30,162 nt of DNA, taken from the IMG/VR virus record IMGVR_UViG_3300020043_001170, positions 1 through 30,162 of that record; one strand, written 5' to 3'. Each line of letters starts with the position of its first letter. Within the stretch, counting starts at the first letter, position 1. Source of the DNA: a virus (lineage: Duplodnaviria; Caudoviricetes). The position numbers and the translations under genes are program-made. This document shows positions 2,748 through 30,162 of the stretch, piece by piece. Under the pieces are notes generated by a model. That model was not told where the DNA came from. It saw only the letters and a list, made by a program, of their open reading frames with translations, and did no database searches.

Positions 2748-3317
2748 ATGAGCTGCGATATTTCACACGGAAGGTTAGAAGTTTGTAAGGACGTTGTAGG
2801 TGGTTTAAGAAACATTTACATAATTAATTATGGTGCATACGATCCACAAGCGGACGTTACTTACGACCCTGCGGTAGATTACACCGATGTAATTACAGGT
2901 ATTACTTTATTGCCTTCAACCGATATTTACAAATTCGAACTTAAGGGTACAAACTCGTTCGAAACTACAATTACAAGTTCACGCGAAAACGGAACTACTT
3001 TTTTCGAACAAGTGCTTTCAATTCAGTTGAAAAAACAAGACCAAATTACACACAAGCAAATTAAATTACTTGCTTACGGAAGACCGAATATCATTGTTGA
3101 AACAAATAACAACGATTTCTTTATTGCAGGTTTAGTAAGAGGTATGGACGTAACTGCAGGAACTATATCTAACGGAACTGCGTTAGGTGATATGACGGGT
3201 TATTCTTTGACTTTCACGGGTCAAGAAGCCGTACCTGCGAATTGGTTAGATTGTACAACCGAAGCGCAATTAGTTTCTTTACTTGGTATTACTGCAGGTA
3301 ACGTAATTAATTCATAA
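2748..3317 (+). CDS. Major tail (tube) protein
   Basis: 189 aa, beta-rich; MSCD..GR...CKD.VGG and ENGTTFFEQ pattern typical of Bacteroidota siphovirus tube proteins; own terminator. Confidence 0.7.
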   Translation: MSCDISHGRLEVCKDVVGGLRNIYIINYGAYDPQADVTYDPAVDYTDVITGITLLPSTDIYKFELKGTNSFETTITSSRENGTTFFEQVLSIQLKKQDQITHKQIKLLAYGRPNIIVETNNNDFFIAGLVRGMDVTAGTISNGTALGDMTGYSLTFTGQEAVPANWLDCTTEAQLVSLLGITAGNVINS

Positions 3318-3363
3318 GAACTTTGTTTCATAACGTTAAGGGGGTGGCGACACCCCTTTTTTT
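3318..3363 (+). ncRNA. Candidate 3'-UTR-derived antisense RNA plus intrinsic terminator (GGGGTG-GCGA-CACCCC-T run)
   Basis: Terminator hairpin is clear; upstream TTCATAACGTTAA is the reverse complement of several start regions; sRNA role is inference. Confidence 0.45.
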
Positions 3364-3364
3364 A

Positions 3365-3400
3365 TGCACAAAAAGTAAGATTAATAGTTATATAAATATG
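3365..3400 (+). promoter_or_regulatory. Putative late promoter, TGCACA-N14-TAGTTAT-N6-ATG
   Basis: Lies directly after a terminator, where a new promoter is needed; conserved spacing. Confidence 0.6.
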
Positions 3401-3730
3401 ATAGTAGTTAACGAAACTAACGTAAGCCAAACCTTTAACTTTATTCCACGATACGGAACACCCGTAACGTTGGAGTTAACAGGCGAAAACACAAACGTAA
3501 CTCAAGTAGTTGCAGGAACGTTTACCGCAGGGGATTACGTTTACAACTTTAGCGGAGTTTTACCCACGGAAGAAAATCAATTTTATTGGGTAGTAATTAA
3601 AGACGGAAGCGGAAACCTACTATTAAAAGAACGTATGTTTTGCACTAACCAACCAATAGACACGTTCTCGGTTAACGACGGCCAATACATAAGCAACCAA
3701 ACAACTAATGACTTTATAATGTATGAGTAA
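3398..3730 (+). CDS. Small beta-rich virion protein (110 aa), possibly neck or decoration
   Basis: ATG at 3398 preferred because the 3323 start runs through the terminator; overlaps the portal start. Confidence 0.65.
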   Translation: MIVVNETNVSQTFNFIPRYGTPVTLELTGENTNVTQVVAGTFTAGDYVYNFSGVLPTEENQFYWVVIKDGSGNLLLKERMFCTNQPIDTFSVNDGQYISNQTTNDFIMYE

Positions 3731-9260: not shown

Positions 9261-9724
9261 AATATCTAATAGTCATTTTAAGCGTTTTAACGCTGTTTTC
9301 GTGTTCAAGTGAACGCAAAGCACAATACCACTACAAAAAAGCGCTTAAACACGGCCTAAAGGTGGTTAACGATAGCGACACGATACGGATAACTACTTTG
9401 GATTCGTTCCCCGTAATAAAAAACGACACGATAATTTGGGAAAAGTTTATAACTACTAAAGACACAATTATAAATTTTCGAAACGTTTATGTTCCAAGAA
9501 CAAAATTTCAGGAAAGAATCGCTTATAAGGAACGAATTAAAACGCTTCGGATTGAAGGTAAGACAAAATGGAAGACCGCGAAGGCCGTTCAGGTTGTTAA
9601 ATACCGCACAAATTGGTGGGTAGTTTTGATTGCTTTTGTACTCGGATTCGTTCTTAGATTTATCTTGAATTCTACTTTTATTTCGCGAGTTCGATTATTC
9701 TTCCGATATTTCGGGCAAATTTAA
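9257..9724 (+). CDS. Lipoprotein with C-terminal TM helix; putative unimolecular spanin
   Basis: Signal peptide plus lipobox LFSC; C-terminal WWVVLIAFVLGFVLRFIL; follows the endolysin. Confidence 0.6.
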   Translation: MKYLIVILSVLTLFSCSSERKAQYHYKKALKHGLKVVNDSDTIRITTLDSFPVIKNDTIIWEKFITTKDTIINFRNVYVPRTKFQERIAYKERIKTLRIEGKTKWKTAKAVQVVKYRTNWWVVLIAFVLGFVLRFILNSTFISRVRLFFRYFGQI

Positions 9725-9728
9725 CGTT

Positions 9729-10595
9729 ATGAATTTAATTAAACACGGACGTAACGTCCACGAACTGCAACTTGAAGGCAAACAAGTTCACGTAGCTATG
9801 TTATCGGACTTACATTGGGATAACCCTAAATGCGATAGGCAGCTACTCAAAAAACATTTAGACTTTTGTAAAGATAATAATATACCCGTAATTATAAACG
9901 GGGACTTCTTTTGCCTTATGCAAGGACGCGGAGATAATCGCCGAAATAAATCGGACATTAGGCAAGAACACAACAACGCAAGATATTTAGATTCGATTGT
10001 AGAAACGGCTTCGGAATGGTTCAAACCTTACGCGGATATCATTAAGGTAATAGGCTACGGAAACCACGAAACGGGAATAATAAAATATCAAGAAACGGAC
10101 TTACTCCAAAGGTTTGTAGACCTACTTAACTATAAATGTGGTTCAAGTGTTCAAACGGGCGGTTATGGCGGTTGGGTAATTATTCGGCAAACATTCCATA
10201 GCAACGCGCAAATAACAACTAAGGTAAAATACTACCACGGAAGCGGTGGAGGTGGTGTAGTTACCAAAGGCGCATTAAACCTTACTAGAGCGTTAGAAAT
10301 GTACGAAGACTTTGACGTGTTCACTATGGGGCACATACACGAAAATAGTTCACGTAACGATGTTAGGGAAACAATTAAGCACAATTCTAAAACGGGTTAC
10401 TCAATTAAACAAAAGCAACTCCACTTAATGTTAACGGGAACGTACAAAGAAGAATACGGCGAAGGCGCATACGGTTGGCACGTTGAACGTGGCGCACCAC
10501 CAAAGCCATTAGGCGGTCGAATTCTTAAAATCGAATGCAAAGAAGTTGATAAGTTAATAGTAAAGAATATCGATAGTTTCAAATTTCCGTTGTAA
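9729..10595 (+). CDS. Calcineurin-like metallophosphoesterase
   Basis: SDLH, NGD, GNHE, YHG and GHIH motifs in canonical order. Confidence 0.9.
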   Translation: MNLIKHGRNVHELQLEGKQVHVAMLSDLHWDNPKCDRQLLKKHLDFCKDNNIPVIINGDFFCLMQGRGDNRRNKSDIRQEHNNARYLDSIVETASEWFKPYADIIKVIGYGNHETGIIKYQETDLLQRFVDLLNYKCGSSVQTGGYGGWVIIRQTFHSNAQITTKVKYYHGSGGGGVVTKGALNLTRALEMYEDFDVFTMGHIHENSSRNDVRETIKHNSKTGYSIKQKQLHLMLTGTYKEEYGEGAYGWHVERGAPPKPLGGRILKIECKEVDKLIVKNIDSFKFPL

Positions 10596-10644
10596 GTTTG
10601 CGCATAGCGTTTTTAATTAGGGGGGGTAGTAATACCCCTTTTTT
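10593..10644 (+). ncRNA. Candidate small antisense RNA with possible own promoter (TAAGTTTG) and terminator (GGGGTA-GTAA-TACCCC-T6)
   Basis: CATAGCGTTTTTAATTAG is complementary to start regions at 10815, 13046, 15851 and 16137; terminator clear; sRNA role is inference. Confidence 0.5.
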
Positions 10645-10747
10645 CGTTTATAGGCTTGTTTTATTAGGCTTTCCGTAAGTTTATACGCTTATTTCTTATT
10701 TAGAATCATTATAAATTATTGAAAAGTGAAAAAAATTTGTTCAAAAG

Positions 10748-10779: not shown

Positions 10780-10814
10780 CGTATGATTATTAACGAACAA
10801 AAACAAAAAACGCT

Positions 10815-10994
10815 ATGGAAAAACAAGAAATGATTAACGAGATTTTAGCTTACGAACAGGAGTTAAAATTCATTTACGAAGAATGTAAAAACGCATTCGG
10901 CCATTTAGACAATGACACGCAAAGCGCATTCAAAGAATGGAACACAATAGATATATTATTAACACGCTTAAACTTAAAAAATGAAACGATTTAG
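10815..10994 (+). CDS. First early protein (59 aa), hypothetical
   Basis: Manually translated MEKQEMINEILAYEQELKF...; A-rich initiation region after the promoter. Confidence 0.7.
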   Translation: MEKQEMINEILAYEQELKFIYEECKNAFGHLDNDTQSAFKEWNTIDILLTRLNLKNETI

Positions 10995-12077: not shown

Positions 12078-12090
12078 ATAGTTATATTTG
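12062..12090 (+). promoter_or_regulatory. Promoter: TATATTTG (-7 box) overlapping an ACA-N14-TAGTTAT motif
   Basis: TATATTTG at 12083-12090; ACA at 12062-12064 and TAGTTAT at 12079-12085; no clear -33 box. Confidence 0.6.
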
Positions 12091-12093
12091 TAC

Positions 12094-12185
12094 TATGGTT
12101 CGGTCTCACAATATAGAACATAAAGAAGTTATTAACCCTGCTAATGACGTGGACGTGAGACCCTGCGAAGTTAGTGGGGTTTTTT
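12094..12185 (+). ncRNA. Structured leader RNA: two hairpins with complementary loops, ending in a terminator
   Basis: GGTCTCAC (12102-12109) pairs with GTGAGACC (12155-12162); stem AACCCTGCTAA/TTAGTGGGGTT followed by a T run. Confidence 0.7.
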
Positions 12186-12205
12186 ATTTATTAAAAATTT
12201 AAGTT

Positions 12206-13936: not shown

Positions 13937-14226
13937 TGGACGATTTCACAACACTACGAGCGCAAGTTTTACTTTCTCACACTTACTTAAAGATTCAGGG
14001 AAGTTTGAATGAAATAAAAGCGAAGAACCCTAATAGAACCGACTTAATAGATAGTATGGAAGAAACTTTAGAACATTTACAAGAATGTAAAGTTTATTGG
14101 AATCAACTCGAACAAGAATACCGAGCGTTGCGCCAAAATGCGTATAGATTAGAATTAGTTAACTTGGACTTAAAGACGGAAAATAATCGCTTAGAATCCA
14201 TTAATAAAGCCTTAAATTACGAATAA
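13936..14226 (+). CDS. Coiled-coil hypothetical protein
   Basis: 96 aa, coupled by TAATG on both sides. Confidence 0.7.
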   Translation: MDDFTTLRAQVLLSHTYLKIQGSLNEIKAKNPNRTDLIDSMEETLEHLQECKVYWNQLEQEYRALRQNAYRLELVNLDLKTENNRLESINKALNYE

Positions 14227-14853
14227 TGAAAATAACAAACGAAGATAATATAGAATTGATGTCAAGGTATCCCGACAAATACTTCGACTTAGCAATAGTT
14301 GACCCACCGTATGGTATTGGAATTGACGGTCAAAAGAAAAGTATTAATAAAAACCCTAAACATAATCGAAAAGAACATTCAAGAAAAAATTGGGATAAAG
14401 CAATACCTGAAAAAAATTATTTTGACGAACTTTTTAGGGTTAGCAGAAATCAAATAATATGGGGGGGGGAATTATTTTACTGAATTCTTGAAGCCAACAA
14501 AAGCGTGGATTTTTTGGTACAAAGGACAAAATGACTTAACTATGTCTGACGGAGAAATGGCTTGGACTTCATTCGAGACGGTTACACGTCAAGTTGAAAT
14601 AAACCGAGCGCAATTAATTTTACAAAATACATTCCACCCAACTGAAAAACCTTATAAACTTTACAAATGGATTCTTGACAAATACGCTAAGCAAGGGGAT
14701 AAAATTTTAGACACTCATTTGGGTAGTGGCTCAATCGCGATAGCGTGCCACGATTACGGATTTGATTTAACCGCTTGTGAATTAGATTCGGAATACTACG
14801 AAAAAGCGATGAAAAGAATAAATAACCACATTTCGCAACAAAAATTATTTTAA
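14226..14853 (+). pseudogene. N6-adenine/N4-cytosine DNA methyltransferase (beta class), frameshifted at a G9 tract
   Basis: DPPY in the first ORF; HPTEKP and LDTHLGSGS in the second; removing one G at 14461-14469 restores IIWGGNYF and a 208-aa ORF. Confidence 0.85.
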
Positions 14854-15826: not shown

Positions 15827-15850
15827 TATATAATTAAAAACGAAAACGCT

Positions 15851-16084
15851 ATGAAAAAATGCAGAACCAAAAAAGATTTAATGAATAATCCTTATGTATC
15901 GAGTATACATACCGAATATCAATATGGAGTATTTGATAATTACGACGATATATTTATATTATCGTTAAAAGGAGGTTATTGGTTTAAGGAAGAACAAGTT
16001 GGTTGTTTACACGAACCAACGATTAAAGCTTTATGTGATAGGTTTAATTCAATGACAATAAGCAAAAGAACAGACGAATTTTAA
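15851..16084 (+). CDS. Hypothetical protein (77 aa)
   Basis: ATG 15851 preferred because the 15824 start lies inside the promoter. Confidence 0.7.
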   Translation: MKKCRTKKDLMNNPYVSSIHTEYQYGVFDNYDDIFILSLKGGYWFKEEQVGCLHEPTIKALCDRFNSMTISKRTDEF

Positions 16085-16119: not shown

Positions 16120-16136
16120 GTTTTGATTTATACGCT

Positions 16137-16655
16137 ATGAAACATTTATTTAAGTCGTTGGCAGCCTTCCAACAAGAAGTACCCGTAATTCACAAAGGGA
16201 CACAAGGCTACGGTTATTCTTACGCAGATTTACCGAAGATTTTTGAGGTGGTTAACCCGCTTCTAAAGAAACACGGATTAGGCTTTACGCAATTACTCGA
16301 TACTAAAGAAGGGATCGACTACATTTGTACGGTTATTTTTCACGTTGAAAGTGGCGAAACGTTAGAATCAAAGGTAGCTATTCCGCAAGTAGAATTAAAG
16401 GGAATGAACGATTACCAAAGTTTTGGTAGTGGTGTTACTTACTTTAGAAGATACGCTTTAAGTTCCGCGCTTGGATTAGTTACTGACAAAGACACGGACG
16501 CTTCAGGCGAACAAGTAAAGAAAAAACCTACGATCGATAACAAACGACTTGGTAAGGCCTTAGAAATGATCGCCGAAGGTAAATACACCAAGGAAGAACT
16601 AATCGAAAAGTTTGAGTTAACCGAAGGTCAAACTAAATTACTAGAAAACGTATGA
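16137..16655 (+). CDS. erf: ERF-family ssDNA annealing protein
   Basis: YSYADL..I, GL.FTQ, FHVESGE and Q..GS..TY.RRYAL....G...D.D.D motifs. Confidence 0.9.
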   Translation: MKHLFKSLAAFQQEVPVIHKGTQGYGYSYADLPKIFEVVNPLLKKHGLGFTQLLDTKEGIDYICTVIFHVESGETLESKVAIPQVELKGMNDYQSFGSGVTYFRRYALSSALGLVTDKDTDASGEQVKKKPTIDNKRLGKALEMIAEGKYTKEELIEKFELTEGQTKLLENV

Positions 16656-17323
16656 AAGTCCGATGTTCTCAAATTGGTAAGATAATGACTAACCCCCGTA
16701 AGTCGGGGGAAGTCTTATCGCAAACGGCTAAGTCTTACGTGGAAGAAATCGTATTGAAAGAAAAGTACGGAATTCGAAAAGAATTTAGTTCGCGTTACAC
16801 GGATAAAGGAAACGAAGTCGAAGAAGAATCGATCGCGCTTGTTAACGATGTTTTGAATTTTAAGTTTATTTACAAGAACGACGAACATTTTACAAACGAT
16901 TGGGTAACAGGAACTCCCGACGTAAACACGGACGAGGTATTAATAGACGTTAAAAGTTCTTGGGACGCTTCAACGTTTCCTTGGTTCGAAACTGAATTAC
17001 CTAACAAAGATTACTATTACCAACTTCAAGGTTATATGTGGTTAACGGGTAAAAACGAATCAATCTTAGCTTATTGCCTTATAGACACTCCAAGCGAAAT
17101 GGTTGAAGACGAAATTCGTAGAGCGCATTGGAAGTTTCATTTAATAGACGAATCGCAGGAACTACGCGAAGAAATCGAAGCTAAGCACAAGTTTAGCCAT
17201 ATTCCGAAAAACCGCCGTGTAAAGTATTGGTTTGTACAAAAAGACGAATCCGTAATTGAGCAAATTAAAGAACGTGTCGAACTATGCAGAGAATACTATA
17301 ACTTATTAATGCAAACGTTATGA
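16652..17323 (+). CDS. YqaJ / lambda-type exonuclease
   Basis: RCS, KGNEVE, TGTPD, DVKSSW and YYYQLQGYM motifs; adjacent to ERF. Confidence 0.85.
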   Translation: MKVRCSQIGKIMTNPRKSGEVLSQTAKSYVEEIVLKEKYGIRKEFSSRYTDKGNEVEEESIALVNDVLNFKFIYKNDEHFTNDWVTGTPDVNTDEVLIDVKSSWDASTFPWFETELPNKDYYYQLQGYMWLTGKNESILAYCLIDTPSEMVEDEIRRAHWKFHLIDESQELREEIEAKHKFSHIPKNRRVKYWFVQKDESVIEQIKERVELCREYYNLLMQTL

Positions 17324-17535
17324 ACATAACACACGATCAAGAACCAATTAAACACGAAGACACTATTTTAATTTCCGTAATGACCAAATACCACGAACGA
17401 AGTAAACGAGGGATACGAAAATACGGAACTAACCTAGACCGAAAAGACGTGGATTTAATTGGGTGGCTTAACCACCTGCAGGAAGAACTTATGGACGCTA
17501 CTCTTTACATAGAAAAACTTAAAAAAGAAATATGA
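17320..17535 (+). CDS. Small all-alpha protein, MazG-like EE-x-x-D motif
   Basis: GIRKYGT.L.R...WL.HLQEELMDA.LY. Confidence 0.55.
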   Translation: MNITHDQEPIKHEDTILISVMTKYHERSKRGIRKYGTNLDRKDVDLIGWLNHLQEELMDATLYIEKLKKEI

Positions 17536-18280: not shown

Positions 18281-18811
18281 ATGGAATGGCTTAAAGACGT
18301 GGCAAAAGACCACAAAGAATGGGTAAAATTAGTAAAGAGTTTCGGCGAAGATTTATACGCTGAGGACTTGGTGCAAGAATGTTATCTAAGATTATACAAA
18401 TACACGAAACCTGAAAACGTAATAACAAATGGGCAAATCAACAAAGGATTTATGTACTTCACTCTTCGTAATATGTACCTTTATGCTATTCGTAACAAAG
18501 GAAAATTTGAAGGCTTTGATATTGAGGCGATACAAATAAAAGATGAACCAAGCCAATTAGATAAACACGAAGCCTATCTAAAGATATTGGGTAAGATAGA
18601 AAACGAAGTGGACTCGTGGCATTGGTACGATCAAAAATTATTTGAACTCTACCGCGACACGGATTTAAGTATAAGGGATATTGCAGCCGAAACTAAAATA
18701 AGTTCAAGTAGTATTTTTAACACGCTCAAGAACTGCAAACAAAAAATAAGGATAGCCGTTGGGGAAGATTACACGGACTACAAAAATGAAGATTTTGAAT
18801 TAATTAAATAA
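18281..18811 (+). CDS. Phage-encoded ECF-type sigma-70 factor (probable late activator)
   Basis: Region 2 AEDLVQE.YLR...Y..LRN; region 4 SIRDIAAETKIS.SSI.NT. Confidence 0.8.
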   Translation: MEWLKDVAKDHKEWVKLVKSFGEDLYAEDLVQECYLRLYKYTKPENVITNGQINKGFMYFTLRNMYLYAIRNKGKFEGFDIEAIQIKDEPSQLDKHEAYLKILGKIENEVDSWHWYDQKLFELYRDTDLSIRDIAAETKISSSSIFNTLKNCKQKIRIAVGEDYTDYKNEDFELIK

Positions 18812-18815
18812 CTTT

Positions 18816-18998
18816 ATGAAACACGTATTAAAAGTATTAAACGAAGAATTAAAACAGCGCAAAATAAGAGCGGCTGAATGGTATGATAGATATAATAAAC
18901 TTTACGAAGATTACCACGATTTAAAAAAAGAAAACGAAATTTTAAGAAAAGATTTATTCGAATTAAGTCAAGAATACTTTAACAATAAAAATAAATAG
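18816..18998 (+). CDS. Coiled-coil hypothetical protein
   Basis: 60-aa ORF, tightly packed. Confidence 0.65.
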   Translation: MKHVLKVLNEELKQRKIRAAEWYDRYNKLYEDYHDLKKENEILRKDLFELSQEYFNNKNK

Positions 18999-21097: not shown

Positions 21098-21266
21098 AAC
21101 CAACGATATGCAAGTAATGATTTCTCGAGTAGAATCTTACATATACGAACGAACGGGCAAACGAGTTCGAATAGTGTTTAACAATATGGCACGATTTACC
21201 GCTCACTTTGATATGCTTATTAAGGCACACGAACACGTTATGAATTACAAAAACACGAATAAATAA
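21084..21266 (+). CDS. Hypothetical protein
   Basis: 60-aa ORF overlapping the terL end. Confidence 0.6.
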   Translation: MQYDKTNDMQVMISRVESYIYERTGKRVRIVFNNMARFTAHFDMLIKAHEHVMNYKNTNK

Positions 21267-21279
21267 TTATAACTATATG
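21244..21279 (+). promoter_or_regulatory. Putative late promoter, ATTACA-N14-TAATTAT-N6-ATG
   Basis: Same spacing as the other copies; heads the tail operon. Confidence 0.55.
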
Positions 21280-29989: not shown

Positions 29990-30162
29990 ATGAGTAACTT
30001 AAACACAATCCTAAACAAGTTAGGAAAAATCGAAGAAATCGAACAAACGAACTTAGCTAAACACGAAGTAGAATTAGCAAATATAAATGAATTAGATAAA
30101 TTAATAAATAATAATAACAGTTTATATAGTGAGTTTGTTAATGTGGATAAATTGATTAAGCC
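29990..30162 (+). CDS. 5' part of the junction-spanning 143-aa protein
   Basis: MSNLNTILNKLGKIEEIEQTNLAKHEVELANINELDK...; continues in frame to the stop at 295. Confidence 0.85.
   Translation, partial: MSNLNTILNKLGKIEEIEQTNLAKHEVELANINELDKLINNNNSLYSEFVNVDKLIK
30128..30162. repeat. Terminal direct repeat, right copy
   Basis: Identical to 2-36. Confidence 0.95.

Follow-up and report, generated by a model that had tools for sequence, protein, structure and literature searches.

A conserved pre-terminator spacer in a phage virion-gene 3′ UTR is complementary to start codons of the same genome

In a phage of the class Caudoviricetes, the short spacer between the stop codon of the gene that follows the capsid gene and its intrinsic terminator (element A) carries an anti-AUG CAT, and the reverse complement of its sequence resembles the start of several distant genes of the same genome. 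This raises the question of whether the likeness is a by-product of composition or ancestry, or whether the 3′ end of a virion transcript is addressed to the start codons of other phage genes. We examined it in the window, which is the whole phage contig (30.2 kb, with a 35-nt end repeat), and in related genomes. All called genes lie on the + strand; the stretch from about 19.5 kb through the contig ends to 10.6 kb holds the virion and lysis genes, and the rest holds replication and recombination genes and a sigma-like gene. The nearest cultured relatives are the Nonlabens phages P12024S and P12024L (28-36% protein identity), and these relatives, together with TATATTTG boxes before the non-virion operons and A-rich starts, indicate a host that is probably of Flavobacteria type. 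The phage group is common and of freshwater type, with an estimated 1,800 or so stored stretches.

The gene that carries element A is likely to encode the tail-tube (major tail) protein, given that it follows the capsid gene and shows a weak structural likeness: the model of an orthologue (pLDDT 68) is beta-rich, and Foldseek ranks neck, baseplate, and tail-tube proteins highest for it, with no match at E<=0.001. A PDB sequence search of the gene gave nothing useful. We infer late, strong expression and an abundant transcript for this gene, which lies behind the capsid terminator. Metatranscriptome contigs (X1-X4) cover the capsid and tail genes of relatives and stop short of the spacer, none of them covering 3294-3600, and assembled contigs cannot show a small RNA. 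The terminator is GNRA-capped, as described earlier from the letters of the window (the sequence-only reading), with a fold z of -2.7. Upstream of it, element A provides a single-stranded stretch, although in a longer fold (3290-3365) its 3′ end is able to pair with the end of the coding sequence. The sigma-ABfr promoter box has the consensus TAnnTTTG; 3201-3335 contains no such box, and no promoter of its own was found for element A.

Table 1. Features of the window discussed in the text
Feature	Position	Strand	Remarks
Gene carrying element A, 189 aa	2748..3317	+	follows capsid gene; PHROG of unknown function
Element A, stop-to-terminator spacer	3318..3337	+	anti-AUG CAT at 3329-3331; unpaired in fold of 3315-3365
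Intrinsic terminator	3338..3363	+	stem 3338-3346/3351-3359; GCGA tetraloop 3347-3350; T run 3357-3363
Predicted target: phosphoesterase-like gene start, ATG 9729	9721..9733	+	13/13; kept in G005, lost in L001 and L014 with the same spacer
Element B, sister spacer and terminator, end of lysis operon	10596..10647 (spacer 10596-10620)	+	complementary over 12 nt to start 10815 and over 11 nt to start 15851; CAT at 10603
ACGCT-ATG tag, first gene behind promoter-like box 10772	10806..10817	+	predicted target of B and, weakly, of A
ACGCT-ATG tag, first gene behind promoter-like box 15819	15843..15853	+	predicted target of B and, weakly, of A
Predicted target: ERF start, ATG 16137	16132..16144	+	12/13; best net energy, -9.9 kcal/mol; best-conserved target
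Weak predicted target: exonuclease start, ATG 16652	16647..16657	+	one base bulged; outside the 12 best after accessibility correction
Predicted target: ORF 17320 start	17314..17324	+	11/11; match absent in G003, G004, G008
Predicted target: ORF 18816 start, behind sigma-like gene	18809..18823	+	14/15

Other elements of this genome are recorded here in their own right. A two-part motif, ACAAAA ... TTATA, precedes virion genes at 648-677, 3368-3397, and 21247-21276, with a looser copy before 29104, and is probably the late promoter of the phage sigma-like gene 18281-18811. At 12083-12192, a promoter box is followed by about 95 nt upstream of the replication genes. The RNA of this stretch is predicted to form a terminator or, during its synthesis, a competing hairpin that captures the terminator 5′ arm; the unit looks like an attenuator, and similar units are found in G016 and G017. 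A DNA methyltransferase lies in two frames, 14226-14483 and 14488-14853, both halves with methyltransferase family matches, which may reflect a frameshift, a broken gene, or an assembly error. Two alike charged, helical-type ORFs (2-295 with 29990-30160, and 678-1085) stand between the protease and scaffold genes, and a family search with the latter found no match.

Matches between element A and start codons

The reverse complement of 3321-3340, a 20-mer whose last three bases (3338-3340) fall in the base of the terminator stem, matches the five starts that the sequence-only reading had listed, the exonuclease start with one bulge (Table 1). Its statement that every match covers an initiating ATG is true of these five and passes over two non-start ATGs that element A also matches, 21240 (10 nt) and 24155 (9 nt).

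In several comparisons, starts are matched more often than chance would give. When the reverse complement around each of the 184 coding-strand CATs was aligned with 51 hand-picked starts under two scores, the CAT of element A ranked first on both, and first again with automatic gene calls. Exact runs of at least 9 nt with element A occur at 6 of 424 ATGs, and four of those six are starts (hypergeometric p 0.0023); at a run length of at least 7 nt, 11 of 20 ATGs are starts (p 2e-6). In a position-free energy scan, start-covering sites make up 3 of the 10 best and 5 of the 20 best, and none of 60 dinucleotide shuffles reaches either count (maximum 2), so the enrichment of best matches at start codons over shuffles, on which the earlier proposal depended, is borne out. 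The other 15 of the 20 best-energy sites are internal, not starts. As a mean over all starts, the energy of element A shows no advantage over that at non-start ATG windows of this phage (p 0.88); an advantage at p<0.01 is seen in 3 of 22 genomes only.

Chance would seem a natural source of such matches, as TATGAA is a common Bacteroidota start (99/709 starts of host-type genomes), and a 36-codon antisense frame open at element A would allow the CAT to be the start codon of a small antisense protein. Taken together, we give these two readings very little credence. Chance is ruled out by the ranks and shuffles, and a conserved antisense ORF beginning at the CAT is refuted by 21 distinct spacers, among which the frame varies (10/7/4) and the ORFs range from 2 to 68 codons.

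The matched starts are mainly those of non-virion genes. After correction for accessibility, the ten best starts for element A belong to nine non-virion genes and one tail-region gene (24100), with net energies of -5 to -10 kcal/mol, and runs of at least 7 nt are found at 8 of 23 starts in the host-promoter arc vs 3 of 28 in the late arc (p 0.048). Capsid, tail, and portal starts share runs of only 3-5 nt with element A. Across genomes (G010 and G037 left out of this count), predicted targets fall in the non-virion arc in 78 of 120 cases vs 60.8 expected; for CAT-bearing spacers the count is 36/50, and for other spacers it is not significant. The targets had been called early genes, which agrees with this lean except for the phosphoesterase gene, the last of the lysis operon and probably a late gene; for that reason we speak of non-virion genes. 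Wobble-type mismatches are not in excess (36 vs 35.9 expected), so this count does not distinguish pairing between RNAs from mere likeness of the DNA.

Relatives, element B, and the start tag

The spacer is conserved beyond its surroundings. Of 80 related loci, 78 gave a 3′ UTR and two without a stop were dropped; across 20 relatives (L001 left out of the mean) spacer identity is 81%, whereas four-fold sites of the gene that carries it and the filler of the adjacent promoter each give 57%. The terminator hairpin and T run are kept in relatives while loops have changed. Of 42 distinct tail spacers, which are related to one another, 17 contain TCAT (in shuffles 6.2 on average and at most 15) and 20 contain CAT (13.4 in shuffles), the latter not a clear enrichment. 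Many relatives have only a U-rich spacer without CAT, and the close relatives G004, G006, and G007 have lost the CAT from the tail spacer. In G006 and G007, the CAT-less replacement spacer can pair without interruption over 12 bases immediately before the start of another gene (protein MDD...), possibly a target switch.

Loss of the CAT in some relatives would fit if element A were a functionless inverted leader copy or the relic of a lost minus-strand gene, and two further observations lend themselves to this reading: the early leaders are repeats of each other, and P12024S has a minus-strand gene directly after the orthologous gene. However, that gene starts on the far side of the terminator, not ahead of it, conservation of the spacer exceeds that of four-fold sites, and 12-13 of 26 lineages show the pre-terminator anti-start pattern again in other letters. 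We therefore regard a relic as improbable.

The recurrence can be seen by ranking CATs as start mimics within each genome. Over 48 genomes, 33 of 52 pre-terminator CATs lie in the top 5% of their genome vs 84 of 1,152 other intergenic CATs; when each cluster is represented by a single genome the counts are 16/27 and 56/749, and without the cluster of this phage 14 of 24 pre-terminator CATs remain in the top 5%. Just behind terminators, the count is 3/26. As stand-ins for the host, 800 kb from four low-GC genomes of the same phylum showed no such effect (1/24 pre-terminator CATs in the top 5%). Since, in addition, the start tag described below is found at only 2 of their 709 starts, the pattern is not a general property of the terminators of these four genomes.

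Spacers also fit the genome in which they are found. Each tail spacer was paired with the start windows of every genome, contigs under 23 kb being left out and starts in relatives being taken from a simple ORF caller (47 of 51 starts common to the curated set in this phage). Among 10 lineage representatives, spacers prefer the starts of their own genome by a mean of -1.4 kcal/mol (1/50,000 permutations). Seventeen control sets were null, namely the reverse complement, the reversed spacer, the capsid spacer, the 23 nt downstream, the last 23 coding nt, and 12 random intergenic 23-mers, and the signal is gone when target windows are shifted by +60 or +150 nt; a weaker signal persists at -60 nt (584/100,000). 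Out of sample, in 16 later clusters, the effect is -0.5, about a third of the first (1,718-3,703/100,000, p 0.02-0.04), and it is absent from 6-7 of the 16, P12024S among them. In this later sample, 7 of 37 long new contigs fell outside, G039 and G042 were omitted for want of a terminator, and the spacers of G031, G037, and G044 were set by hand. Of the covariation of seed and targets, which the sequence-only reading had proposed as a check, a fit to the own genome is seen at the lineage level; pairwise covariation was rejected for the phosphoesterase start, the best match, as L001 and L014 have an identical spacer and have lost the 13/13 match. Likewise, ACGTT and ACGCT tags do not track the seed variant.

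Some of these results bear on whether a protein, rather than RNA-RNA pairing, reads the motif, either a DNA-binding protein that recognizes it in both orientations or an RNA chaperone bound to the U-rich 3′ end. The null wobble count, the palindrome TAACGTTA within the seed, and the many relatives that keep just a U-rich spacer without CAT could all be so explained. Against this, the reverse-complement control is null, relatives do not preserve TAACGTTA, enrichment is far lower for CATs just behind terminators than for those before them, and every start-covering copy in this phage is in the sense orientation whereas the top-ranked inverted copies all stand just before terminators. We consider recognition by a protein unlikely, if less so than a relic.

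The second-ranked CAT of the 184 (tied on one score) belongs to another pre-terminator spacer, element B, which ends the lysis operon and is kept in relatives; a TAAGTTTG box at the stop of element B is not kept in them. Its predicted targets are the first genes of two early operons, and its net energy of -13.8 kcal/mol to both is stronger than that of element A to any target. Both starts carry an ACG(C/T)T-ATG tag, which is found at 2-5 gene starts per genome in all seven genomes of this cluster and at one gene in 2 of 41 others. A complement of the tag stands before a terminator in 6 of the 7 cluster genomes, all of which form one clade and so count as one event; G007 keeps two tags, with neither element A nor element B intact.

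Near the late/early border, where element B lies in this phage, many relatives carry free-standing units of a promoter box, an anti-AUG seed, and a terminator (about 55-70 nt in G016, G017, G024, G031, G044, G045, G050, G053, and G055), which resemble the Bacteroides FopS RNAs and are sub-threshold for that family where tested. The box lies 5-12 nt before the CAT in 9 of 14 units examined. These units are better sRNA candidates than element A. Across 81 genomes from the phylum to which G059 belongs, a promoter-plus-TTTTCATA pattern had 187 matches and its reversed control 186, and the pattern was thus too loose to be informative.

How the spacer might act

The complementarity of the spacer to start codons of its own genome is a real, selected feature. 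Our favored account of it, held with a little more belief than doubt, is that the spacer, a conserved complement of the ACG(C/T)T-ATG-AA start context of several non-virion genes, serves as a trans-acting antisense seed that lowers translation of non-virion genes late in infection. As no promoter box was found for element A, the late mRNA would act through its own 3′ end or through a processed fragment of that end, which would measure about 45 nt for a cut close to the stop. Initiation in Bacteroidota proceeds without Shine-Dalgarno pairing and depends on the bases just upstream of the AUG (PMC6847099, PMC7366714). A seed RNA that covers about -7 to +8 around the AUG could block initiation there. 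In this way, element A would damp the ERF, 17320, 18816, and phosphoesterase genes and element B the first genes of two early operons, while the A-rich capsid, tail, and portal starts would escape. The two elements may together provide late-to-early feedback on recombination and other non-virion genes after late transcription begins. Net energies of -7 to -10 kcal/mol fit damping better than the shut-off of translation in the earlier proposal, which overstates the likely effect.

An antisense seed could also act in cis, with the 3′ UTR folding onto the start of its own mRNA or onto a gene in a read-through transcript. The phosphoesterase gene is downstream on the same strand, and element B is 200 nt before one of its targets. 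Starts of its own operon, however, share only 3-7 nt with element A, and the nearest good target of element A is 6.4 kb off and behind a terminator, which makes cis action very improbable.

A different question is whether the seed is aimed at the phage at all. Element A could be a FopS-like repressor of host mRNAs, for example those of outer-membrane transporters that are possible receptors, with the phage matches as side effects. FopS itself occurs in a phage, and its core, TTTCATA, equals that of element A (PMC11697453). Element A shares at least 7 nt with 96 of 709 host-type starts and at least 9 nt with 6 of them; these leave room for host targets, and over a whole host genome such sites would outnumber those in the phage. 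Matches of at least 9 nt are nonetheless about nine times denser in the phage (4/51 vs 6/709, the latter from the four stand-in genomes), the ACG(C/T)T part of the seed fits a tag that is rare in host-type starts, and seeds follow phage lineage. Host repression as the main role is thus an unlikely reading, though we put it slightly ahead of the protein one.

In its broadest form, the antisense reading is that anti-tags at the 3′ ends of late mRNAs read address tags at start codons, so that virion transcripts close the early/middle program, and that this code has been rewritten lineage by lineage across the phage family. We offer this generalization tentatively, as one that may well prove wrong. 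If true, it would describe a protein-free early-to-late switch encoded in mRNA ends and would show how sRNAs choose gene sets in a phylum without Shine-Dalgarno sequences. It would also fit the suggestion that phages spread FopS-like RNAs. Our literature search, with most subscription journals outside its scope, found no published case of a phage late-mRNA 3′ end that targets the start codons of its own genome.

Comparison with known systems

A parallel on the side of the targets comes from Cluster K mycobacteriophages, in which start-associated sequences reportedly form a short motif common to the starts of non-virion genes. We know of no antisense counterpart to them, and their hosts use a different translation system.

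Among antisense regulators of initiation, the icaR 3′ UTR of Staphylococcus aureus is similar to element A in that a 3′ UTR motif is complementary to a translation-initiation region, there the Shine-Dalgarno sequence of its own mRNA (PMC3868564). As far as that account goes, icaR pairs with its own mRNA, whereas the own-operon starts 678, 1109, 1724, and 2748 give only the short runs noted above. In phages P1 and P7, the c4 antisense RNA prevents phage genes from being translated through a short pairing with the initiation region (PMC12197685), and so resembles element A as a phage RNA with known, here predicted, action on phage genes. In contrast, c4 as described there is structured, presents its seeds in loops, and acts on one target operon (ant) in immunity; the window has no c4 match in an Rfam scan.

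The closest parallels are from the same phylum. In Bacteroides thetaiotaomicron, FopS RNAs (RF04319) consist of a single-stranded 5′ seed followed by an intrinsic terminator and block the start codons of several targets, a block of initiation by pairing that was shown for FopS-10; the consensus begins with the TTTCATA core, FopS-14 is 3′ UTR-derived, and a copy was noted in a phage (PMC11697453). Element A has the same core, the unpaired seed and terminator, and several predicted start-codon targets, and its 3′ UTR position is like that of FopS-14. Compared with FopS as presented in that report, element A lacks the rest of the R1′ seed and a promoter box, only the 7-nt core being common to both, and it lies in the 3′ UTR of a phage virion gene with phage genes as predicted targets, whereas FopS targets are host PUL mRNAs; RbpB binding and repression of susC-type mRNAs are further traits of the family. 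With the FopS covariance model (gathering threshold 56 bits), none of five genomes had a match above the cut-off, and element A was not among the matches at E<=10; free-standing units scored 20.5 bits in G029 and 19.3 bits in G026. The best match in this genome, 613-687 on the minus strand (24 bits), is the mirror of the start region of gene 678. It follows that the FopS likeness is partly generic, since reverse-complementing an ordinary start region already yields something close to FopS. An Rfam scan of the window had no FopS or GibS match at E<=5 and only two weak unrelated ones, and five stretches of relatives had nothing at the gathering score.

GibS of B. thetaiotaomicron places an unstructured seed across the start codons of its targets in this phylum without Shine-Dalgarno sequences, as element A is predicted to do. 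Unlike element A, it is described as a free-standing sRNA of 145 nt that has its own promoter, carries two seeds, and acts on metabolic targets of the host (PMC7366714). By analogy, element A would work like FopS and GibS while being a member of neither family.
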